Below, piece by piece: positions 14,325-25,963 of a stretch of 32,000 nucleotides of DNA (the stretch's first letter is position 1; each line of letters opens with the position of its first letter). The notes under the pieces were generated by a model that ran no database searches, was not told where the DNA came from, and saw nothing but the letters and a program-made list of their open reading frames with translations. A program made the position numbers and the translations under genes. Source of the DNA: an uncultured Haliangium sp. (GTDB lineage: Bacteria; Myxococcota_A; Polyangia; Haliangiales; Haliangiaceae); contig CAYMOR010000035.1 of assembly GCA_964392045.1 (NCBI GenBank), positions 38,201 to 70,200 of the forward strand. Direction: 5' to 3'.

Positions 14325-15173
14325 CTACGGGCCCGCGGGAATGCAGACGTCGTCGTCGGGGTCGAGGCCGAACTCGGCGCCGTTGTCGTCGCCGCACACG
14401 AGGTCGCCTTCGCAGTCGTCATCGCTGTCGCAGTCGCCCTGGCCGGCTTCGCACGGGCAATCCTCGGTGCAGAACTCACCCGAGCCGTTGCGCGAGTCAG
14501 GCGGGCAGCTGAGGCACAGGTCGAGGTCGGGGTCGGAGAAGCCAAACTCAGTGCCGACGTTGTTGTAGCACTCGAGGCCGGTCGCGCAGTCGCTGTCGTC
14601 GTCGCAGTCGCCTTCAGCCTCATCGCAGGGGCAGCCGGGGTTGCAGTAGTCGACGGTGCCATTGGCCGAGCTCGGCAGGCACGACGCGCACACGTCGGTG
14701 TCGGGATCTTGGCCGAACGAGGCCCCCACGTTGCGGTAGCAGGTGAGGCCGGACGCGCACTCGGTGTCGTCGTCGCAGTCGCCCTCGCCCTCGTCACAGG
14801 CGCACAGCGCCGAGCAGTAGGTGCTGGTCCCGAGCCGCTCCTCGCCGGGGCAGGCGCAGACGTCGGTGCCGGGATCGGCGTACCCGAACTCGGTCCCGAC
14901 ATTAAAGGTGCAGCGCAGGCCGTCTAGGCACTCGTCGCTCGAGTCGCAGTCGGCTTCGCCGATGTCGCACGGGCACTCTTCGGTGCAATACCCGTCATCG
15001 CCGGGCTCGCCGACGTGGCAGTCATCGGCGAGCGTGCCGACCGCGGCTTCAGACGACAGCGAGGCCGCGGCGGTGTCAGCGGGCTGAGCCTCGGGCTGCT
15101 TGTCGACGGTACACGCCGCCAGCGCAACCGCGGCGATACCCAAAAGTACGCAGGTTCGAAATCCTTGAATCAT
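14325..15173 (-). CDS. Secreted lipoprotein made of four tandem ~57-aa, 8-cysteine, Asp-rich repeats (unclassified)
   Basis: 282 aa with a lipobox (VALAAC). Four repeats follow the pattern C-x(10-11)-YC-x3-C-x-C-x2-GEGDCDxDxxC-x2-GLxC-x2-NVGxEFGxxDPxxDVC. An AAGGAG-like RBS lies upstream of the ATG. Confidence 0.8.
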   Translation of the reverse strand: MIQGFRTCVLLGIAAVALAACTVDKQPEAQPADTAAASLSSEAAVGTLADDCHVGEPGDDGYCTEECPCDIGEADCDSSDECLDGLRCTFNVGTEFGYADPGTDVCACPGEERLGTSTYCSALCACDEGEGDCDDDTECASGLTCYRNVGASFGQDPDTDVCASCLPSSANGTVDYCNPGCPCDEAEGDCDDDSDCATGLECYNNVGTEFGFSDPDLDLCLSCPPDSRNGSGEFCTEDCPCEAGQGDCDSDDDCEGDLVCGDDNGAEFGLDPDDDVCIPAGP

Positions 15174-15960
15174 TCCTTATCTCTCCTTCTCTAGACAGTT
15201 GTGGTCATTACGCGAGGGTCGCCAGTACAGCACCGACGCAGCGCTAGACGAATACAGATCATCTGAGTTTCTTAGCCACTCAAACCGATCATATCGTTCG
15301 CACAAAGCACACAAGGCACACAAGGCCGCACAAAGCGATTCGCCCCCAAGCGACTCAGCTCTTATAACTCAATGTTATTCCGACACGCAAACAAGTTTAT
15401 TATATTTTCACGAATCAGTAACCATATGTAGGCAATGTAGAGATTGATACGGAAAGATCTCATAATCGCTACAATGGCCCGCGCTCACCAGCGCCCGGTG
15501 AGGCGGCAAATTCATCAATTTCAGCTATCTAGCAGCGGGGCGCGAAACGCGTCGAGATCAGACCCGACTGCAACTGTCTGTGAAGTTACGCGATATACAA
15601 CATGGTCAATTAGTCAACATTCACCCAACGTACTTCAGGTTACTGGATATACGCATGCAATCCATTAATCAGTTTCCATATGATGTATCTTAGAAGACAT
15701 GAAATATGAGCGCCTTGCGGGATAATGCTGCGATGGTTCATCCAACCGCGAGCGTCCGCCCCGCATCGCGCACAGCACAGCGCCGATCACCTGCCCTGTC
15801 CGCGTAAAGACGAGCCCGCTTCACGCAAAACCCAAGCGCTAATTGACAGATACTGTTAGAACACAACCTGCCTGCCTCACGCGCAAACCAGCGGCGGGCG
15901 CCAGCTCGAACGCCGCGCACGCGTCACACATGCACAGCGCGCTGACGCGACCTCAGCCGC
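15174..15960. other. Anomalous AT-rich non-coding island (~0.8 kb)
   Basis: Hand counts of four 60-nt lines (15361, 15421, 15601, 15661) gave 30-42% G+C, against roughly 70% in the flanking genes. The only ORFs here are short and lack the GC3 bias of the neighbours. The island lies between the stop of the 15961-17289 gene and the start of the 14325-15173 gene. Confidence 0.8.
15300..15337. repeat. CA-rich short direct repeats (gcacaaag / cacacaagg x2 / ccgcacaaag) about 130-165 nt upstream of the Cys-repeat lipoprotein start
   Basis: Read directly from the sequence: gcacaaagcacacaaggcacacaaggccgcacaaagcg. This could be a regulator-binding array, but its function is unknown. Confidence 0.5.
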
Positions 15961-17289
15961 TCAGCGTACCGCGATGGCCGCGCACTCGATCGTGATATCG
16001 ATCGCGCCACTGTCGAACGACACCCGATCGCTGAGCACCACCGTGCGCGCGACCGACTGGGGCTGGAGGGTGAGCCGCAGGCTGGCCCGCTGCTGCGTCC
16101 CGTCCGGCTCCGACAGCACACAGCCGATCTCTGCCCCGCCGCAGTCGTCGCGCTCGAGCGCCGAGATCGCGAGCGGCTGCTGCGATGTGGCGATGATGTC
16201 GCAGTGCCCTGAGCCGGTGTCGCCGACGCCGGGCAGCACAAAGCGGTAGGTGAGGCTGCCGGCATCGAAGGGCGTGCCGACCCCATCGACCGCGCGGGCG
16301 AAGCTGCAGCTCGGCGCCATCACATACGGGCCAAAATCGCTGACCGTAAGCCCTGAGGTAGTGAGTTCCTCTGCCGGGCACGCCGGCGCGTCGCTGAGGC
16401 CGATATCGAGCTGAAACGCACCGCCCGCTTGCACCCCGTCGACCAGCACCGCAACCACCTCTCCGGCGCGCAGGAACCGAACCACCTCCGCCCCCAGCTC
16501 ACCAGACGCCGCGATGTTACAGCCCAGCTCGCGATCGCTGCAGCGAGCGCCCTCGAGCAGCCCGACCAGCGGCCTGAAGCTGCCGGCCTCGGCGCGGAAA
16601 TAATATAAGCCATCCGCTGGCGCGACCCAGTGATAAGCCCGGTCTTCCACGCCGTCGCCGCCGCACTGCACGCTGTGATCGTCGCCAAACCCCACCGTCG
16701 ACTGATCGAGCGGCACCGACTGCCCCTCCAAGTCGATGTCCGGGCACGTGACCCGCTCGACGTGAAGCTCGCCAACGCCGCGATCGCCTGCCACCCCATC
16801 GACCACCAGAATCATCGGCTGCCCGCCGGGCAGCTTCGTCACCAGCTCGGACTGCGCCAGCTCATCGATGTTGTTGTTACACGCCAGCTCAGCGCCGCCG
16901 CACTCGTCGTACACAGCCAACACGGTGTCGAAGCCGGAGCCAAAGGTATCGATGACGTAGTAGTCAGTGGTCGGCGGGGTCCACAGGAACACCTGCTCGG
17001 GGCTGCCCGCGCCGCCACAGCTATTGGTGATCGCGTCATCGGCGAGATCGGTATCGACCGGGGTGGTCCCGGTCGGCCCGCTCACCGGGTCGCTCACGCA
17101 GCTGGTGTCGATGCTGCGCGCGTCTGGCGGCGCGGCGTCGGCGGGGCCGCCGGTCATGCCGTCAGCATTGACGCGCGCGTCTGCTGCGCCACCCCCGTCG
17201 ACCGTGTCGCTGGGCGACAGCGACTCGATCCCCAAGATCTGACTACAGCCACCGACGACGACCAGCGCCAAACTGCCCCACAGATACAT
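15961..17289 (-). CDS. Secreted lipoprotein with three tandem ~120-aa Cys-containing beta-sandwich-like (PPC-like) domains
   Basis: The start is taken at internal M56 (MYLWGSLALVVVGGC, signal peptide plus lipobox). The track start at 17454 would overlap the 3' end of the upstream gene. The domain pattern repeats, for example DYYVIDTFGSGFDTVLAVYDECGGAELACNNN...ILVVDGVAGDRGVGELHVE, then GLYYFRAEAGSFRPLVGLLEGARCSDRELGCN...VLVDGVQAGGAFQLDI, then a third copy. Confidence 0.7.
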   Translation of the reverse strand: MYLWGSLALVVVGGCSQILGIESLSPSDTVDGGGAADARVNADGMTGGPADAAPPDARSIDTSCVSDPVSGPTGTTPVDTDLADDAITNSCGGAGSPEQVFLWTPPTTDYYVIDTFGSGFDTVLAVYDECGGAELACNNNIDELAQSELVTKLPGGQPMILVVDGVAGDRGVGELHVERVTCPDIDLEGQSVPLDQSTVGFGDDHSVQCGGDGVEDRAYHWVAPADGLYYFRAEAGSFRPLVGLLEGARCSDRELGCNIAASGELGAEVVRFLRAGEVVAVLVDGVQAGGAFQLDIGLSDAPACPAEELTTSGLTVSDFGPYVMAPSCSFARAVDGVGTPFDAGSLTYRFVLPGVGDTGSGHCDIIATSQQPLAISALERDDCGGAEIGCVLSEPDGTQQRASLRLTLQPQSVARTVVLSDRVSFDSGAIDITIECAAIAVR

Positions 17290-17383
17290 GAGACCGCGCC
17301 GCCAGGCAGCGCCTGCAGCCCGCGCGGCTCGCTCACGACCAAAAACCCTGTGTCCATGGCCGCAGAATAGCGTGCCTTGACCG

Positions 17384-19411
17384 CTACGGCTCGCCGTCGT
17401 CGGCGACCAAACCGAGCACGCCGCGGATATCGCTGGCGCCGCCGCCACTGCCACCGCCGAGCGGCAACTTTTCGAGCAGGCGCCCAGCCACCTCGGCCAC
17501 GCTGTCGCCGCCCAGGATCGCTAGCGGCGAGAGGTTCTTGCTCAGCGCGGCGGCCATCTGCTGCCCGGCCAAGCTCTTGAGGGTCGCGATCAGCTCGGGC
17601 GAAAGCGCTTCCATCTGGGCCCGAAACGCGGCCGAGCGGGCCTCGAGGGATGCGCGCTCGAGCGCCGCCTCGCGCTCCTCGGCCTCGAGCCGCGCCTGGG
17701 CCAAGATACGCGCGGCCTCGGCCTCGTGGCTGGCGCGGCGCAGCTTGTCGAGCTTGTCGAGCGCGAGCACCGTGTCTGTGCGCGCCAGTTCCACCTCGCG
17801 GCGCGTGGTCTCGTGCTCGGCCGCCTTCGTGAGGGTGTCGATCTGGGCGCTGTACACGTCGCGATTGACCGACTCCTTGAGCTGCTCATCGCCGAGCCGC
17901 AACTGCTCCTGCTTGCGCGTGATGGTCGAGACGATCGCCATGCGCTGGGCGTCGCACAGCATCGCCTTGACGTCCTCGTCGAGGATCTGCACATCGAGCA
18001 CCTCGACGTCGTAGACCCACATGCCGTTTTCCTTGAACAGCCGCCCCTCGCGCTCGCCGCTGTCGCCGCGCGGGCCGAGGATGGCGCTGCGCAAGATGTC
18101 GGTGCTGGTGGCGTGAAACGAGTCGATCGAGCTGGCCCGCGCCGCCGCACGGATGATCGAGCCCAGGTGGTCGCACAGCAGGCCGACGTAGTTCTTGACG
18201 CTAAACCAGCGCTCAGAGTCACCGACGAATGAGACCCGATACGACAGCAGCACTGCCAGCTCGACGTGATCGGCGGTCTTGACCCGCACCAGATCGGAGA
18301 CCTTGTTGCCCTGCACCTGCAGAAAACAGGTCGGCAGAAGCTCATCGTCGGTCTTGGGACGACCGGTCGAGAGCGTCAGCACCTCCAGCTCCTCGTCGTA
18401 GTCCAAGATGCGGGTCTGGGGGCCGGTGAGCACCTCGCGGCGGCTTTTGGCCGAGATCATCACCGCGGTGCTGGGCGGGACATAGATCGACAGCGCGCGG
18501 CTGGGATTGTGAGCGTCGGCGTCGAGCTGATACAGAACCGCGTGGCGGGCGTCGAGCCGGCGCGAGATCAGCTCCTCGCGGGTCGGGTCCACCAGGTAGT
18601 TGATCGGCCCCTCGACCGTCGAGATCTTGCCGGAGCCCAGCTCGCGCACGTAGATCGCGGCCTTCTCTGCCAGCGGGATCGGCTCGACCACCCCGACCAC
18701 ATCGACGTTATCCGTGGGAAAGAACACCCCCTCGCGACCGCGCAAGAAGATGTCCTGACCGGCGAGATAGCTGCCCGGCGGCACCTGATCGGCCTCTTTG
18801 GCCTCAAACGGCGCGATGACCCGCACGTGCAAGCCGCGGTTCTTCTCCATGCGCCAGGCCCGGCGCACATAGCTGCCGTCGCGGTTGGGGACCACCTCGC
18901 GACCGCTCGGGGGGATATAAAAGCTGCGATCGGTGCCGCGGATGATGTGCTCGCTGCCGATGGGCTCGTCGGTGCCGAGGTCATCGTACACCCGGACCAC
19001 CAAATACTCATCCTGGCGCAGCGCGTGGCCGTCCAGCACCTTGGCCTGCTGCCCCGGCCAGAGCGGGAACTCCACCGGCCCCGGGACCACCACCTTGCGG
19101 CCAAAGCGCAGCGGGATGGCCGAGTTGGCACCTTTTACCGGCTTGTCGTCCTCATTGACCGGCGGGTTCTCGAGGATGATGTACTGCGACGACGACGCGT
19201 ACGCGAACGAATACACGCCCATCCCGGCCTCCTCGCCGCGCACTGGCACGAACCGGCCGTCGCGGAGGATGATCATGCGCTCGGTGTTCGACAAGCTGAT
19301 CTTGGTGGGGCCGACGTAGAGAACGATGTCGCCTTTGGTCAAGTCCTGCACATAGGCGTACTCATTGGGGGCGACCAGAATGTCGCGCTCACGGATATCA
19401 CGATCTGCCAT
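17384..19411 (-). CDS. Major vault protein (MVP) homologue: MVP repeats, shoulder (SPFH-like), cap-helix coiled coil and cap-ring
   Basis: 675 aa from ATG 19411. By eye it is collinear with rat/human MVP at four points:
- N-terminus: ILVAPNEYAYVQDLTKGDIVLYVGPTKISLSNTERMI vs [38 protein letters not shown].
- Shoulder: EVLTLSTGRPK...VRVKTADHVELAVLLSYRVSF vs FTVLSLSAGRPK...[22 protein letters not shown], and FSVKNYVGLLCDHLGSIIRAAARASSIDSFH vs [31 protein letters not shown].
- A ~150-aa A/E/R-rich helix.
- C-terminus: FRAQMEALSPELIATLKSLAG vs FKQMTEAIGPSTIRDLAVAG. Confidence 0.8.
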   Translation of the reverse strand: MADRDIRERDILVAPNEYAYVQDLTKGDIVLYVGPTKISLSNTERMIILRDGRFVPVRGEEAGMGVYSFAYASSSQYIILENPPVNEDDKPVKGANSAIPLRFGRKVVVPGPVEFPLWPGQQAKVLDGHALRQDEYLVVRVYDDLGTDEPIGSEHIIRGTDRSFYIPPSGREVVPNRDGSYVRRAWRMEKNRGLHVRVIAPFEAKEADQVPPGSYLAGQDIFLRGREGVFFPTDNVDVVGVVEPIPLAEKAAIYVRELGSGKISTVEGPINYLVDPTREELISRRLDARHAVLYQLDADAHNPSRALSIYVPPSTAVMISAKSRREVLTGPQTRILDYDEELEVLTLSTGRPKTDDELLPTCFLQVQGNKVSDLVRVKTADHVELAVLLSYRVSFVGDSERWFSVKNYVGLLCDHLGSIIRAAARASSIDSFHATSTDILRSAILGPRGDSGEREGRLFKENGMWVYDVEVLDVQILDEDVKAMLCDAQRMAIVSTITRKQEQLRLGDEQLKESVNRDVYSAQIDTLTKAAEHETTRREVELARTDTVLALDKLDKLRRASHEAEAARILAQARLEAEEREAALERASLEARSAAFRAQMEALSPELIATLKSLAGQQMAAALSKNLSPLAILGGDSVAEVAGRLLEKLPLGGGSGGGASDIRGVLGLVADDGEP

Positions 19412-19421
19412 GGGCCTCGGT

Positions 19422-19427
19422 CTCCTT
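19422..19427 (-). promoter_or_regulatory. Shine-Dalgarno site (AAGGAG) for the MVP homologue
   Basis: The minus strand reads taAAGGAGaccgaggcccATG, a 10-nt spacer to ATG 19411. This supports the internal Met rather than the track start at 19564. Confidence 0.55.
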
Positions 19428-19692
19428 TTACTCACGGTTGGCTGGCCTCCCACAGGCCGCTCACGGCGCAGCCTGACGGCGCCCGACGAGGTCGGGCAGA
19501 GGGTGGGTCGGTCTCGTCTCATCAGCAAAGCGCGTGCCGAGCGCGAGGCCGCGCCGATACACAACCCCCTCGCGCGCTCTCTGATCGCAAATCGTACACC
19601 TGCGCCGAAATGACGCGACCGATCCGGGCCGCGGTGAAGCAGCGACCCACATGCCCTTGCCGGTGACCGCCAGCGGTGGCATCGTCGCAGCT

Positions 19693-20886
<1,194 letters not shown>

Positions 20887-20915: not shown

Positions 20916-21893
20916 CTACGGCGACGCCACCTGCGCCGCCCGGTGGATCACCGTCGGCGGCTGCACGCCCTGCTCGCGGTACGCGCGCTTAACCCGCTCG
21001 GTCACATCGCTCTCAAACAGCTTCTCGTAGCGCACGTCGAGCACGTAGGCCTTAGCCCGCAGCCGGGTCGCCAGGTAGCTGTCCTGAATCACATCGTTGA
21101 CCAGCACCAACACCGGCTTCTCGAGATACACGAACCGGCTGGTCCGCAACGCCTCGTACACGATCCGCTTGGCCACCCGGATGTCGCTGTCGATGGCGAC
21201 ATAGAAGTCCATCACGATCTGCATATCGAGAGCGCCAGCGTTGCCGGAGACCACGACTTCAGTGAGGAAGCGGTTATTCGGGATCGTCACCAGCGAGTCG
21301 TCGAGCGTCACCAGCCGCACCGAGCGCAGCCCGATCGACGAGATCTCGCCGTACTGCCCGGCTACCGTGACCCGATCTCCAACCTGGAACGGTCGGTCGA
21401 ACAAGATCGTGATGCCGGCCAGCACCGAAGAGGCCAGATCTTTGAGCGCAAACCCCACCGTCACCGCGATCGTGCCGCTCAGGGCTAAGATGGCCTCGCG
21501 CTCGAGCTGCACAGACGAGCTGACGACGATCAGGATCGCCACCAGATAGATGGCGAAGCGCAAGATGGTGCTCACCTGCTGGACCAGCAGGCGGCGATCG
21601 GAGAAACGATCCCCGAGCCGCTCGGCCAGCCCGTTGACGAACCGCAGCGCCAACGCCGCGATCGCGATCGCCAACAGCGCCACGATGAAGCCGCTTGGGC
21701 GCAGAAAGCGCAAGATCTTGGCCGCGTCTTCGCCCTCCTGCGCATGCGCCAGCACCGGCCAGGCCAAAAGCCCGAGGACCAAGGCCAGCCCCACCGCCGA
21801 CCTCGCGGCGGGGCGCCTCCACCCTGCCGGGGATCCCCATAACGAGCACATTGTGCGGCACATTTGCAGAGATAGCTTCACGATACTGCTCAC
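20916..21893 (-). CDS. MscS-family small-conductance mechanosensitive channel
   Basis: 325 aa. LKDLASSVLAGITILFDRPFQVGDRVTVAGQYGEISSIGLRSVRLVTLDDSLVTIPNNRFLTE is the classic MscS pore-helix/beta-domain signature. The track GTG start forms a GTGA overlap with the stop of the upstream 1357-aa gene. Internal ATGs at 21863 and 21851 are alternatives. Confidence 0.85.
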   Translation of the reverse strand: MSSIVKLSLQMCRTMCSLWGSPAGWRRPAARSAVGLALVLGLLAWPVLAHAQEGEDAAKILRFLRPSGFIVALLAIAIAALALRFVNGLAERLGDRFSDRRLLVQQVSTILRFAIYLVAILIVVSSSVQLEREAILALSGTIAVTVGFALKDLASSVLAGITILFDRPFQVGDRVTVAGQYGEISSIGLRSVRLVTLDDSLVTIPNNRFLTEVVVSGNAGALDMQIVMDFYVAIDSDIRVAKRIVYEALRTSRFVYLEKPVLVLVNDVIQDSYLATRLRAKAYVLDVRYEKLFESDVTERVKRAYREQGVQPPTVIHRAAQVASP

Positions 21894-24800
21894 GAGTAGA
21901 GGAGGTGGCGACGGCGCAGGTAGCGGATGATCGACTGCTGCCAGTGAATGCTGAGCCGGACCCGCGCGGTGCTCGAGTTGAGCACCAGATAGCCGTGCTC
22001 ACAGCAATAATCGACCGCGAAACGGCAAAAGTCGGGCGAGAGATTCGACACCGCCGCGAGTTCGTCCACGTTTATGTTCTCGTGCTCGACCACGGCCGTG
22101 AGCACAAACGCCATGTCGTCCGAGAGCGCCTCTAGGGCCTGAATCCGGGGCGCGGCGAATAAGTGGACGCGCGCGGTCCGAGTCTCCTCGTCGGGCACCA
22201 GCGAGCGCAACCAAAAGTGGGTCGCGACCCGCGGGTTGCCGGCCGTGAAGTCCCACAGCAGCCGAAAATAGCCGCGCGAAGTGCGGATGATCTGGGCCCG
22301 CGTACCCACGCCTTCGATGTTTGTGACCAAAAGGTCGGTAAAGTTGCTGCGATAGCCGGCCCGCCGCATGCGGGTGAGGATCAGCCGCCGCAGCTCCTCA
22401 TCGGTCCACGGCGGCATCTTCACCACGCGCCGAAAATACGCCACGCCGCCGGCAATGTTGGCCAGGTAGTCCCAGGCCACATCGTTGAAGCCGAGCACCC
22501 AGAACACCTGCTCGCAGGTCTGATTGACGATGCGCGTGAAGGTCTCCCAGGCGCGGAAGCCATCGACCTGCCGCAGGAAGAAGTTGTGGCAGCCATCGAG
22601 CGCCATGATCCGCGGCCCCTGGTCCCGGATCGCCTGGATCAGGTCCTCCTCGCTCGAGAACACCACCGGCCCGATGGTCTCCTCACCGCCCTGCGCGGCT
22701 GGCACCGCGAGCTCGAGCAGCCCGCCAAGCGCCGCGATCAGCGCCGCCGACTGGACGTACTTGGTGGTCACCTCGACGCTCGTAATCGGCGCCTCCAGCT
22801 CACTCTCGAGCATCGAGAGCACGGTGCTCTTGCCCATGCCGCGGGCGCCGACGATGACCACCGAGCCCTGCACCCGCTGCTCCTGCCAAGCCGCAAACGC
22901 GTCGCGGATCTCGGCCAGTACCTTGGTCTTGACCGGACGATCGGACGGCGTCAGCGCGCCCGCCGGGAACGCCGCCTGCAGGTCTTTGGGCAGCTCCTCG
23001 ACCCGCTCTAGCACCCGGCCGTGCTCGGCGGCGTGCTTCTCGACCCGACGCCGAAACATAAACGCCAAAAGCCGCTTGGCGGCGTCGAGGTTGGCGACCT
23101 CATCGCGGGCCCAGATCGTCAGCCGGGTGATGATCACGCTGGTTAAGGCCACGAAGGTGAGCGCCGCACCGTAGAAGCGGTGGCCGTGGCTCGCGATCAG
23201 CTGGGTGAGCTTCGAGCCGGGCTTTAAGTAGGTGACCACCAGCTCGGCGATGGTCTTGCGGTGGATGTGGATATAGACACCGGCGAGCACGATGCCGATC
23301 CACAGCGCGATCCGCATGAACAGCGCGTAGACCAGCGCCTCGCCCATACCGACCGTGATCAGCGCTCGCACGATCAGAACGATGCCGAGATAACCGGACA
23401 GAAGCCGCCACACCCGCCGCACCAGCTTCCACGAGATCGGCGCACGCGGCAACGACGCGGCGTTCACGGCCGCCTGAGCCGGCGGATTCGCTGCGGCGCT
23501 CGCCGACCCGGACGCTCGCTGCGCCTCGTCGCCACCGCCACGCGCGCCCGTTCCCGCTCCGTCGCGCGCACCTGCGCCCGCTCCGTCGCGCGCCCCCGTG
23601 CCCGCTCCGTCGCCGCGAGTGTGCTCAAAGCCGGCCTCGTCAAACTCGGCATTCTCGCGCGCGCGCTCCTGGGTCCGCGACTCGAGTACCGCCGTGATCC
23701 GCTCGACCAGGCGCATCTGGACCCGAAACGTCGCGAACCAGAACCCAATCGGGTGCAGAATGCGCGCCTCTGGCGGCGCCTCGGCATCGCCGCCGAGCTG
23801 CCAATACACCAGCTCGATCGCCGCCAGCCACAGCAGCGCAGGGCCAAAGCTGCGGGCGAACTCGCACAGCCGCGCCAAGAACAGCGTCCACGGCCCCACC
23901 GGCAGCGCAGTGCCGATGAGTTCGACCGCGCGCAACATCCAGCCATCCCAGCGGCGCAGACAAAACCGCAGCACAAACAAGATAAAGGCGATATCGAAGA
24001 TCCACCACAGCGCGCGCCCCAAAGTGCCGTAATCACGCAAAAGCGACAGCCCGGCGCCCAGCTCCTCGACTCGACGATTGAGCCAGTACGCGGCGCCGAC
24101 AGCCGCTTGGGTGGCCTCTTGCCAGAGCTGGCCCTGGGTCCGAGCGGACAGTGGGCTGGCCAGCATCTCGCGACGGGTCTCGGGCAGTGTCTGCCACAGT
24201 GTCATGCGGGCCCGATAGAGGGCCGTGATGTGCTCGTAATACAGCCTCACGCGCTCTTGCGTCAGCTCGCGTAGATCGGCCTCGTAGGTGCGAGCGCGCT
24301 TGGACAGCGCGCTCCTAAGCTCCTCCAGCTCGGCCCGGCCGGCCTCGTATTCGTCCGGCAGCGCCCGCACCTCGACACGCAGCGAGCCCGGCCTGGGCGC
24401 GGGCGCGAGCCCGGTGAGCAAGCCGAAGATCTCGGGCAGCGCGACCAGGCGCGCGCGCGCCAGTGCCGCCCGCAGCTGGTCGTGAAGCTCGGCCCGGGTG
24501 CGCTCGCGGGCGCGCGCCAGGGCGCGCTCGTCATCGTCTTCATCGGCGGCCACAGCGGCCTCGACGCGCTTGAGAAAATCGTCGCGCTCGGCCCCGAGCT
24601 GGTCGCGCTCGTCCACCACGGTCTGGCGATAGGCCAAGACTACCTCTTGCTCAAACCGGCCCTGCTCCTGCTGGACGTGATACAGGCGGGCTCGCTCGGC
24701 GCTCAGTGTGGCCTCGGCCCGCGACGCCGCCCGCGCTTGCTCAGAGCGCGCCGCCTGCTCGGCGTCGGCCGCGGCCTGGACGTCGCGCGCGGCCCGCTCG

Positions 24801-25963
24801 GCGGCCGCGGCAATCGCCCGCGCGCTCTCACCAACGAGTTCCTGCGCGGCTCGCCGGGCCGGCTGACTGCGGCCGAGATACGACCAGCTGGCCTCGACCA
24901 GCGCCAGCTCGCGCAGCGCCAACTGACCCCGCAGCTGCACCTGCTCCAAGCGCGCCGCCCGCACCGCCGCGAGCGCGTCGGCGGCGGCCTCCGCTGCGGG
25001 CTGACGCGGATCGCGCGCGCGCCTGCGGCCAGCGGCCGGCGCCGCCGCAGCGTCCGACTGCCAGCTCTTCGTCAGGGTGTCCTCAATCGCCGCCCAGTCG
25101 CTGGCCTCGGCGTGCAGCGCGACCCGCCGTCTGGTCAGCGCGTCCCGGAACGCCGCCACCGCGTCGGCGTCGGTGAGATCGACGTCGCTGGCCGGCCACA
25201 GCGCAACCGTCGGTTGGGCGTGGCCCGCCCGCGCGCCACCGTCTCCATCAGGGCCATCAGAGCCGTCAAGACCATCAGAGCCGTCAGGACCATCAGGACC
25301 GGCGCCACCGCGACCGCCGACCACGCCGCCGTCTGCGCCCCCTGGCCCGGCCAAGTTCGGCTCGCTGTCCTCAAACCCGTCCGCGCCAGCCGCGACCCCC
25401 GCATCCGCCATCGTACCGACGCCCGCGTCAGCCGCGGGCGCAAGCGCGGTGAGCCACGACGACAGCACCGACTCGGGCGCCACCGGCGGCGCCACCTCCG
25501 CCAGCCCCGCCGCCAAAAGGCCCGGCGGGGGCTCGACGACCTCGGCCGCCAGCCCCGTCACCGCCTCGATGCGGGCCTCGAGCGCCGCGCGCTCCCGGGT
25601 CAAGGCGTCGAGCTGCCGACTCCGCCAACGCGCCAGCTCGGCCTCGTCTACCGCCAGCCCGGCATCGGTCCACATCGCGCCGCCGACCACGCCCCACAGC
25701 GCCGTCGCCGCCGCCTCCCAGGTGCTGTGGAGCGTGTCGCGATCTGGTACCACGCCGCCCAGCGCCGCGCCGTCACCCGCGCCCGGCGGTGACCCGGGCC
25801 CAGCATCGGGCGGCGCAGCCGCAGCGGGCGCGGCTGCCGCCAACATCAGCACGAGCATAGATAGCGCACGCACGGCGACACCATACCGCGCGGGCGACCG
25901 CGTCCGCCACTTACCGGCGCCGCGCGGCTGAGCGGCGGCGCACGCTCCAGCGCCGCTGCTCAA
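21890..25963 (-). CDS. Giant envelope-spanning protein: signal peptide, ~600-aa periplasmic coiled-coil/low-complexity region, ~7-8 TM helices, cytoplasmic P-loop (AAA+/STAND-like) ATPase and a winged-helix-like tail
   Basis: 1357 aa.
- Signal-like N-terminus: [21 protein letters not shown].
- Long Ala/Arg/Glu heptad-like stretches.
- TM clusters: [22 protein letters not shown]..., [87 protein letters not shown].
- Walker [14 protein letters not shown] at nt ~22823-22849.
- Walker B-like [12 protein letters not shown].
- [16 protein letters not shown] and [11 protein letters not shown] resemble the lid/sensor-2 region of ORC/Cdc6-, ExeA- or Arch_ATPase-type NTPases.
The exact start is uncertain: TTG 25963, GTG ~25873 or ATG 25858. 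Confidence 0.75.
23544..23615 (-). repeat. In-frame 24-bp tandem repeat x3 encoding DGAG(T/A)GAR in a loop of the giant protein
   Basis: The plus strand reads ...cccgctccgtcgcgcgcacctgcg / cccgctccgtcgcgcgcccccgtg / cccgctccgtcgcc. The protein reads [28 protein letters not shown]. Coordinates are approximate. Confidence 0.7.
25245..25300 (-). repeat. In-frame 9/18-bp tandem repeat encoding (DGxDGS)-type sequence in the periplasmic part of the giant protein
   Basis: The plus strand reads ccatcagggccatcagagccgtcaagaccatcagagccgtcaggaccatcaggacc. The protein reads [22 protein letters not shown]. Coordinates are approximate. Confidence 0.65.

Follow-up and report, generated by a model that had tools for sequence, protein, structure and literature searches.

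Does a bacterial chromosome encode a complete major vault protein (MVP) relative, and would such a protein build a vault-like shell by itself? These questions are raised by a 32-kb stretch of DNA from an uncultured Haliangium sp. (contig CAYMOR010000035.1; hereafter the window, to whose positions all coordinates refer), in which a prior sequence-only reading had singled out an open reading frame (ORF) of 675 amino acids (aa) as an MVP of complete architecture. The function of vaults has remained unresolved for ~40 years, and reviews still describe these particles as exclusive to eukaryotes. Our analysis identifies the 675-aa protein as a full-length, colinear MVP homolog, for which assembly into a shell must be weighed against several alternatives.

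When queried on its own with phmmer, the protein matched rat MVP (E 3.5e-30) in a single alignment of residues 141-645 with rat residues 284-825, which takes in the sixth to ninth MVP repeats (R6-R9) and the shoulder as well as the cap helix and the beginning of the cap ring; the rat domain boundaries used here are those of the 2009 crystal-structure paper. All of the motifs quoted in the sequence-only reading (GPTKISLSNTERMI, LSTGRPK, KTADHVELAVLLSY, FSVKNYVG, and IDSFH) are present in the translation, and the latter four align in the HMMER comparison with the same rat motifs against which they had been set by eye. Among all PDB sequences, only MVPs match at E<=0.01. A family profile built from 39 close homologs of the 675-aa protein matched rat MVP at E 2.8e-55 and added a second stretch, in which query residues 67-259 align with rat residues 48-232 (R2-R4), including FPLWPGQ versus the FPLYPGE of repeat 2. 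For R1, a profile restricted to residues 1-66 reached MVP at E ~0.3, which is not significant, with the matched positions being colinear (profile 14-45 vs. rat 11-42). The R1 counterpart previously seen in GPTKISLSNTERMI is thus weak by sequence alone; the match is suggestive at that level, and it is mainly the predicted fold that suggests an R1 equivalent.

Among Pfam models, MVP_shoulder (PF11978) was matched clearly by residues 369-478 (E 2.2e-29; 102 bits vs. a cut-off of 25) over model positions 3-118 of 118, Vault_3 was barely over its cut-off (29.2 vs. 28.8 bits; residues 323-358), and Vault_4 was matched below threshold (residues 245-288). Recognition of the protein by Pfam vault models, proposed as a check in the sequence-only reading, therefore held for the shoulder and narrowly for Vault_3, but not for the canonical Vault model (PF01505), which had no match; neither did Vault_2 (PF17794). 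The protein also had no match to Band_7 at E<=1 and no meaningful model in NCBIfam. Similarity of the cap helix to TolA and flotillin was treated as compositional (Flot, E 0.004, below cut-off). The earlier concern that the likeness might be confined to a generic SPFH-type shoulder does not hold, as the single-sequence alignment covers R6-R9, the helix, and the cap-ring region, the profile adds R2-R4, and the structural model has the repeat stack.

That model, an AlphaFold2 monomer prediction built from the 39-sequence alignment, has a mean predicted local distance difference test score (pLDDT) of 79.6. Its β-strands (residues 10-361) fall into six repeat units, rather than the approximately five proposed from the letters, followed by an α/β shoulder (369-476), an unbroken helix (479-610), two short helices (618-647), and a disordered tail (see table for the domain map). 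Foldseek comparison with the PDB placed the vault shells of rabbit, human, and rat on top (E 2.4e-35 to 3e-29), with MVP occupying all of ranks 1-16 and a query-normalised template-modelling (TM) score of 0.61 to 4V60; crystal structures of murine R1-R7 formed a second tier (E 1.6e-14; TM score 0.51). The SPFH cages (flotillin, prohibitin, HflK/C, QmcA, stomatin, and erlin) were weaker matches (E 2.8e-7 at best) that involved the shoulder and helix only. A comparison with vault structures, for which the sequence-only reading had called, thus ranks MVP shells first and far above SPFH cages.

Table. Features of the MVP-homolog gene and its surroundings, with positions in nucleotides (nt) of the window; conservation is the mean column conservation in the bacterial clade.
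Feature	Residues	Position	Strand	Conservation	Basis
MVP-homolog coding sequence, 675 aa plus stop		17384-19411	-		ORF and translation; start alignment of 39 homologs; rat MVP; family profile; Foldseek
Shine-Dalgarno AAGGAG, 10 nt before ATG		19422-19427	-		Direct sequence reading
Repeat 1, putative MVP R1 equivalent, most conserved domain	8-56	19244-19390	-	0.90	Model strands 10-56; weak match to rat 11-42 (E ~0.3)
Repeat 2, FPLWPGQ matching rat FPLYPGE	57-119	19055-19243	-		Profile query 67-259 vs. rat 48-232; model strands
Repeat 3, generic MVP repeat, aligns to R3 or R6	120-176	18884-19054	-		Alignments and model
Repeat 4, R4/R7-like	177-233	18713-18883	-		Rat alignment; model; short/long-form alignment
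Repeat 5, R8-like, short helix 288-293	234-305	18497-18712	-		Sub-threshold Vault_4; rat 377-456; model
Repeat 6, R9-like, ends in invariant LSTGxPK "keyhole loop" motif	306-362	18326-18496	-	0.76	Vault_3, 29.2 bits
Shoulder, SPFH/band-7-type α/β fold	363-478	17978-18325	-	0.77	MVP_shoulder, E 2.2e-29; model
Cap helix, one continuous ~132-residue helix, Ala/Glu/Leu/Arg-rich	479-610	17582-17977	-	0.59	Model; rat ~647-800
Cap-ring-like segment, "PELIATLKxLGxQQLAxxLSKNLSPLAILGGxSV"	611-650	17462-17581	-	0.78	Conservation
C-terminal tail, variable, Gly-rich, probably disordered	651-675	17387-17461	-	0.30	pLDDT <50; conservation
Tryptophan 2,3-dioxygenase gene		19651-20886	+		
1357-aa protein and overlapping MscS-type gene		20916-25963	-		4-nt overlap with MscS-type channel start
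Predicted 442-aa lipoprotein (MYLWGSLALVVVGGC...)		15961-17289	-		
282-aa protein, Cys/Asp-rich modules		14325-15173	-		

Conservation is highest in R1, the repeat that makes the waist contact in eukaryotic vaults, followed by the cap-ring segment, the shoulder, and the R9-like repeat. The conserved segment 605-650 (0.78) aligns with rat residues 783-825 in the HMMER comparison, and its pLDDT in the monomer model is <50.

The gene is encoded on the minus strand, with its ATG at 19411 and its stop codon at 17384-17386; the span given in the sequence-only reading was accurate, and its strand is corrected here. The longest possible ORF would begin at a TTG (19564), a start that is not supported, given that 39 of 39 aligned homologs begin at the equivalent of M1 ("MAERD(I/V)RERDILVAP"). 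ATG 19411 was taken as the start because all 39 homologs begin there and an AAGGAG lies 10 nt upstream, the latter being the ribosome-binding site that had been claimed. Native codon usage, also claimed, is borne out by a G+C content at third codon positions of 0.89 and a codon-frequency correlation of r = 0.97 with 12 other window genes; with codon usage like that of its neighbours, the gene therefore looks native. Those neighbours are typically myxobacterial, including a Ser/Thr kinase, hybrid histidine kinases, DUF4388 response regulators, and an extracytoplasmic-function sigma factor, in a window with a G+C content of 60-76% as a whole. No plasmid relatives of the homolog were found, and an exact-sequence look-up of the protein returned no record. 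Overall, the gene is best read as a resident, vertically inherited member of a bacterial MVP family, carried by a Haliangiales-type myxobacterium.

In 2013, cyanobacterial MVPs were proposed to have come from eukaryotes by transfer (PMC3762200); for the gene studied here, a recent origin of this kind, or eukaryotic contamination of the assembly, is scarcely credible. The protein is ~21% identical to mammalian MVP versus 53-97% to hundreds of bacterial proteins, its gene sits among myxobacterial genes of the same codon usage, it is preceded by a bacterial ribosome-binding site, and its surroundings are syntenic in a related genome. Contamination and recent transfer were ruled out on codon usage, synteny, and family size. 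Moreover, in a neighbour-joining tree (326 shared columns, rooted on one rat MVP segment, no bootstrap), the bacterial proteins are all about equally distant from rat MVP. The sequence comparisons thus argue that the homolog does not stem from a recent eukaryotic donor.

How large, then, is the family to which this gene belongs? Its nearest match in the database, at 97% identity, is a protein of a Haliangiales metagenome-assembled genome, followed by proteins of Haliangium and Kofleriaceae (64-79%). A homolog search yielded 673 clusters at 90% identity, and an exhaustive HMMER scan of 1.84 billion representatives yielded 1141 clusters at 50% identity, of which 522 reach E<=1e-30; a scan with one genome per GTDB species placed relatives in at least 468 species. 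Bacterial relatives of MVP are far more widespread than usually stated. Among the matches listed, the protein's own clade (51-79% identity, ~640-740 aa) is almost entirely of Myxococcota (Haliangium, Kofleriaceae, Polyangiales, Labilithrix, Myxococcaceae, and Archangium), joined by a few bins labelled Acidobacteriota, Planctomycetota, or Clostridia. Among these same matches, long forms (31-40% identity, ~800-950 aa) occur in Nannocystis punicea, N. exedens, N. bainbridge, and Enhygromyxa salina, all of them cultured. They are likewise present in bins of Vulcanimicrobiota, Sericytochromatia, Gemmatimonadota, Spirochaetota, Bacillota, Chitinophagales, Caldilineaceae, Riflebacteria, and Schekmanbacteria. 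Two bins labelled as Methanosarcinales archaeon carry relatives of ~700 aa with 39-40% identity (loci L053, 6001-8154, and L054, 3231-5135), which are nearer to the 675-aa protein than are most of the bacterial long forms among the matches listed.

Members of this family differ in repeat number. Just ahead of repeat 4, after the equivalent of residue ~183 (nt ~18863), relatives have one to four additional tandem copies of a ~40-aa unit ("VRxAVxLxxGEYCxL...G.KRY..GP.VVFPEP"), with four in P0125 and P0127, one in most long forms, and zero in the 675-aa protein; in most long forms there is also a large insertion preceding the last repeat, which the 675-aa protein is without. The size deficit had been placed N-terminal to the shoulder, and this is indeed where the ~850-aa relatives have their extra units and insertion. 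In the neighbour-joining tree, the zero-unit forms make up a clade that is nested among forms with at least one unit and that has a few one-unit members inside it. From the sequences, repeat number, and hence wall length, appears to be evolutionarily labile, and there is a hint that the short form with zero extra repeats may be derived.

Relatives are also encoded by viruses. Three huge-phage genomes (462-735 kb), namely LR756500.1 (21282-23363), LR756501.1, and LR756503.1 (17491-19599), encode proteins with 29-33% identity over ~80% of the 675-aa protein, in records that are unannotated. Separately, an 802-aa giant-virus "prohibitin domain" protein in BFVD (A0A3G5A4K1, Harvfovirus sp.) aligns with the model over 811 columns (E 3.9e-14), and may be MVP-like instead of a plain SPFH protein.

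The distant relatives in the three huge-phage genomes, as well as the gut phages reported to encode MVP (10.1101/2023.11.10.566534), bring up the idea that the gene is derived from a mobile element or phage, e.g., as part of a defence or counter-defence system; eukaryotic vaults have themselves been linked to NAD+ depletion through TEP1 (10.64898/2026.05.01.722283). We deem this origin very improbable, however, as the gene has native codon usage and no plasmid matches, PADLOC returned no match at E<=0.01 for the homolog or three neighbours, the window contains neither tRNAs nor any gene of a phage, integrase, or transposase, and the neighbourhoods of the gene vary by lineage and are made up of housekeeping or signalling genes.

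Upstream of the MVP gene, and divergent from it, is a tryptophan 2,3-dioxygenase gene, the two start codons being 239 nt apart; a Haliangium sp. retains this pair (70% identity), whereas MVP carriers that are less closely related do not. Beyond it are the MscS-type channel gene and, translationally coupled to it, the gene of a 1357-aa membrane protein with an Ala/Gly-rich N-terminus, a coiled-coil-like region, a hydrophobic middle, and a C-terminal AAA_16/AAA_22 P-loop. The dioxygenase, MscS channel, and AAA_22 protein are syntenic in a Haliangium sp. (79% identity), this being a feature of the closest species only; in other lineages the neighbours are quite different, and six contexts compared singly likewise differ. 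Across 81 loci (ORFs within 4 kb, clustered), no conserved neighbour was found, i.e., no family occurs in more than 14, and the two seen most often, namely generic Ser/Thr kinases and hybrid histidine kinases, vary in orientation. Downstream, 94 nt after the stop codon, is the gene for the predicted 442-aa lipoprotein, which has no Pfam or PADLOC match and does not adjoin the MVP gene in the 80 other loci. No terminator-like site lies between the two genes, one follows the lipoprotein gene, and a search for a sigma-70-like promoter found none; with signals this weak no operon is called, and elsewhere the lipoprotein is not kept beside MVP. The MVP gene is a stand-alone unit.

As stated in the sequence-only reading, the window has no feature resembling TEP1, PARP, or vault RNA. 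The large ORFs of the window are devoid of TROVE, PARP, vWA, NACHT/WD40, and DUF4062 domains, Rfam gave nothing at gathering score in the whole window, and a permissive Rfam scan of 15000-20000 (E<=1) gave only a chance match inside coding sequence, with no vault RNA or Y RNA; tandem repeats were also not found in the window. Farther downstream, the 282-aa protein has an N-terminus like that of a lipoprotein and, in tandem, four Cys/Asp-rich modules of ~55 aa each ("C..CPCD.GEGDCD.D.EC..GL.C..NVG..FG"), with no Pfam match. At 15001-16000, the G+C content drops to 0.55 (rest 0.60-0.76), a dip that corresponds for the most part to the intergenic stretch between this gene and that of the lipoprotein, and in which no tRNA, Rfam family, or tandem repeat was found.

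What would a stand-alone MVP homolog build? We propose, with a probability of roughly 0.6, that it would form a shorter vault-like shell by itself. Many copies would pack side by side, as in eukaryotic MVP and SPFH cages, with the shoulders packing laterally into a ring, the cap helices converging to a dome that the cap-ring segment would close, and the six repeats forming the wall. The wall of each half would thus be ~1/3 shorter than its eukaryotic counterpart (six vs. nine repeats), and the product would be a hollow, soluble, vault-like shell of one protein. The near-invariant tip of R1 would be a candidate contact for either joining two halves or docking one half on another surface. In solved vaults, the repeats extend the wall and R1 joins the halves at the waist (PMC12280208); the most conserved parts of the homolog, i.e., R1, the cap-ring segment, and the shoulder, correspond to the parts that make the waist, apex, and lateral contacts there (interface residues from PMC12280208). 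The strong constraint at both extreme ends of the very elongated monomer would fit symmetric contacts by both ends in a closed particle. Given the lack of a conserved neighbour in 81 loci and the superior conservation of the contact-making parts, assembly from a single protein is plausible. There is also precedent, in that rat or human MVP alone forms vault-like particles in E. coli (PMC9778704), and a five-repeat Asgard homolog has been modelled as a closed cup (PMC12962969).

Several observations weigh against such a shell: (i) the human half-joining residues F6, I7, R9, I36, and D39 are not literally conserved; (ii) at the human waist contact, only an "NTER" versus "DNER" motif is similar, in an alignment with E ~0.3; (iii) the structure predicted herein is that of a monomer, and everything beyond the monomer is inferred; (iv) the cap-ring segment is of low confidence in that model; (v) the hydrophobic periodicity of the cap helix is not significant, its best period (3.0) being matched by 11% of shuffles; (vi) the genome context, over the 32-kb window and 81 loci, indicates no cargo, RNA, or partner protein; and (vii) from the alignment, the human NAD+ pocket appears mostly not conserved, with about 3-4 of its 13 residues kept.

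The first of these points also bears on a different arrangement, in which a single dome would be docked on the cytoplasmic membrane or another surface via the R1 tip, in the style of an SPFH cage, instead of forming a free two-half vault. R1 is the most conserved repeat, yet the human half-to-half contact residues are not kept in it; shoulder and helix match every solved SPFH cage (Foldseek E 3e-7 to 1e-4), and 12 of 32 family members match Pfam Band_7. Furthermore, SPFH assemblies abut membranes (PMC12624060), and some Dictyostelium vaults associate with endoplasmic reticulum membranes in situ (PMC13100048). We nevertheless regard a surface-docked dome, the leading alternative to the free shell, as unlikely for this protein, which lacks a signal peptide and transmembrane segments, has an N-terminus that is neither hydrophobic nor amphipathic (its start is MADRDIRERD, and R1 has a net charge of -1), possesses a long MVP-type repeat wall found in no SPFH cage, and has no NfeD or FtsH-protease membrane partner encoded nearby.

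The free shell that we favour presupposes oligomerization, whereas the protein could instead form no cage at all, keeping the MVP fold but acting as a scaffold (soluble or filament-forming) or in nucleotide binding. Our analysis gave no evidence of assembly, the cap helix is without a clear heptad signal, and a 2019 preprint speculated on nucleotide (GMP/CMP) binding (10.1101/872010). In addition, the LSTGxPK loop, whose human counterpart lines the NAD+ site of MVP (PMC12280208), does not vary between short and long forms, S348, G350, P352, and K353 being invariant. In the human protein, the NAD+/ADP-ribose pocket lies between adjacent shoulders (PMC12280208; 10.64898/2026.05.01.722283) and comprises R504, K506, R507, P508, H509, R511, L517, D521, F522, W545, P565, and K573 (PMC12280208). 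When these positions were mapped via the rat MVP HMMER alignment, R351, K353, and L364 were kept and N369 was similar to D521; the eight others were replaced (T354, D355, D356, L358, K370, V393, K406, and D414). This replacement of most NAD+-contacting residues (R507T, P508D, H509D, R511L, W545V, P565K, and K573D) speaks against a conserved nucleotide-binding role, as does the strong conservation at both extreme ends of the monomer against a protein that forms no cage; moreover, every protein with a shoulder and long helix that has been studied by experiment, be it MVP or a member of the SPFH family, assembles into a ring-symmetric cage. Overall, the cage-free alternative strikes us as decidedly improbable. 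The invariant loop itself may have some ligand or interface role.

A broader scenario, which we consider less likely than not, is that many bacteria (Myxococcota-led, in more than 10 phyla) and some archaea build genuine single-gene vault shells, with barrel length set by a labile repeat number, and that the vault would be an ancient prokaryotic nanocompartment inherited by eukaryotes and later fitted with TEP1, PARP4, and RNA. If such bacterial shells are real, the long-sought core function of vaults could be studied in cultivable bacteria, and a compact single-gene version without accessory components would show what an MVP shell does alone. Bacterial MVP would thus offer a tractable system, amenable to recombinant assembly, to knockouts in Nannocystis, Corallococcus, or Haliangium, and to cryo-electron tomography, while the natural series of barrel lengths could serve protein-cage engineering. 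Interest in the system would increase substantially with particles demonstrated.

Bacterial MVPs have a published history, such that the novelty ascribed to this gene in the sequence-only reading was overstated. Daly et al. reported homologs in 2013 from Corallococcus, Plesiocystis (two copies), Microscilla, Saprospira, Flexibacter, and Herpetosiphon, which were modelled as vault-competent (PMC3762200); accessions have been named for Corallococcus coralloides (H8MNI3) and Plesiocystis pacifica (A6FXM1/A6FXE2) (PMC3762200; 10.1101/872010). Proteins of Enhygromyxa, Saprospira, Microscilla, and Moorea were the subject of a 2019 preprint (10.1101/872010), the gut-phage MVPs came to light in a 2023 preprint (10.1101/2023.11.10.566534), and a 2026 paper described five-repeat Asgard homologs with a modelled cup, stating that prokaryotic homologs were from "only a few Bacteria" (PMC12962969). 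Other papers still call vaults absent from prokaryotes (PMC9778704, PMC11855390). The present gene adds no new principle beyond the published bacterial and Asgard homologs; what our analysis contributes is how large the family is and how widely it is spread phyletically, that no partner gene is conserved, and that repeat number varies, with this homolog at the minimal end. The literature searched contained no experimental characterisation of any native prokaryotic vault, in agreement with the prior statement that no bacterial vault particle has been characterised.

The 675-aa protein belongs to the same family as the published bacterial MVPs, the myxobacterial ones being of the same phylum and all being experimentally uncharacterised; among the relatives that we recovered are Enhygromyxa salina and Nannocystis long forms (33-34%) and own-clade members from Myxococcaceae and Archangium (51-54%). 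Going by their description, most of the published proteins are longer (mean 822 aa, 10.1101/2023.11.10.566534), whereas the homolog falls in a compact ~675-aa clade with no extra unit. The Asgard homologs, likewise compared by description, are also shortened prokaryotic MVPs with a cap helix, a shoulder, and fewer repeats (five vs. six here), and multimer modelling led to the proposal of a cage for them (PMC12962969); they differ in coming from another domain of life, and half of them group with eukaryotic MVPs (PMC12962969), whereas the Haliangium protein lies within the bacterial radiation. With the SPFH/band-7 cages (HflK/C, QmcA, flotillin, stomatin, prohibitin, and erlin), the homolog shares the shoulder fold and long helix from which ring-symmetric domes are built. 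Those cages are membrane-anchored and lack a repeat wall, whereas the homolog has no Band_7 match and a hydrophilic, charged N-terminus; its matches to them are at least 25 orders of magnitude weaker than those to MVP.

Relative to eukaryotic MVP (rat, human, and rabbit; 4V60, 4HL8, 7PKZ, 9BW5, and 9Z4W), the homolog has six repeats instead of nine, is without the long R8 insertion, and has a cap helix of ~132 versus ~155 residues. It has no specific equivalent of the PARP4-binding repeats R3-R5, neither TEP1, PARP4, nor vault RNA is encoded nearby, the NAD+/ADP-ribose pocket appears mostly not kept, and overall identity is ~21%. The two nonetheless share colinear repeats, an SPFH-type shoulder, and a cap helix, followed in the homolog by a putative cap-ring segment, with sequence similarity that is significant between repeat 2 and the cap ring and with motifs common to both (FPLWPGQ/FPLYPGE, LSTGRPK/LSAGRPK, TADH, and FSV.(N/D)(Y/F)VG); eukaryotic MVP is thus the known system that the Haliangium protein most resembles, being also its top structural match.

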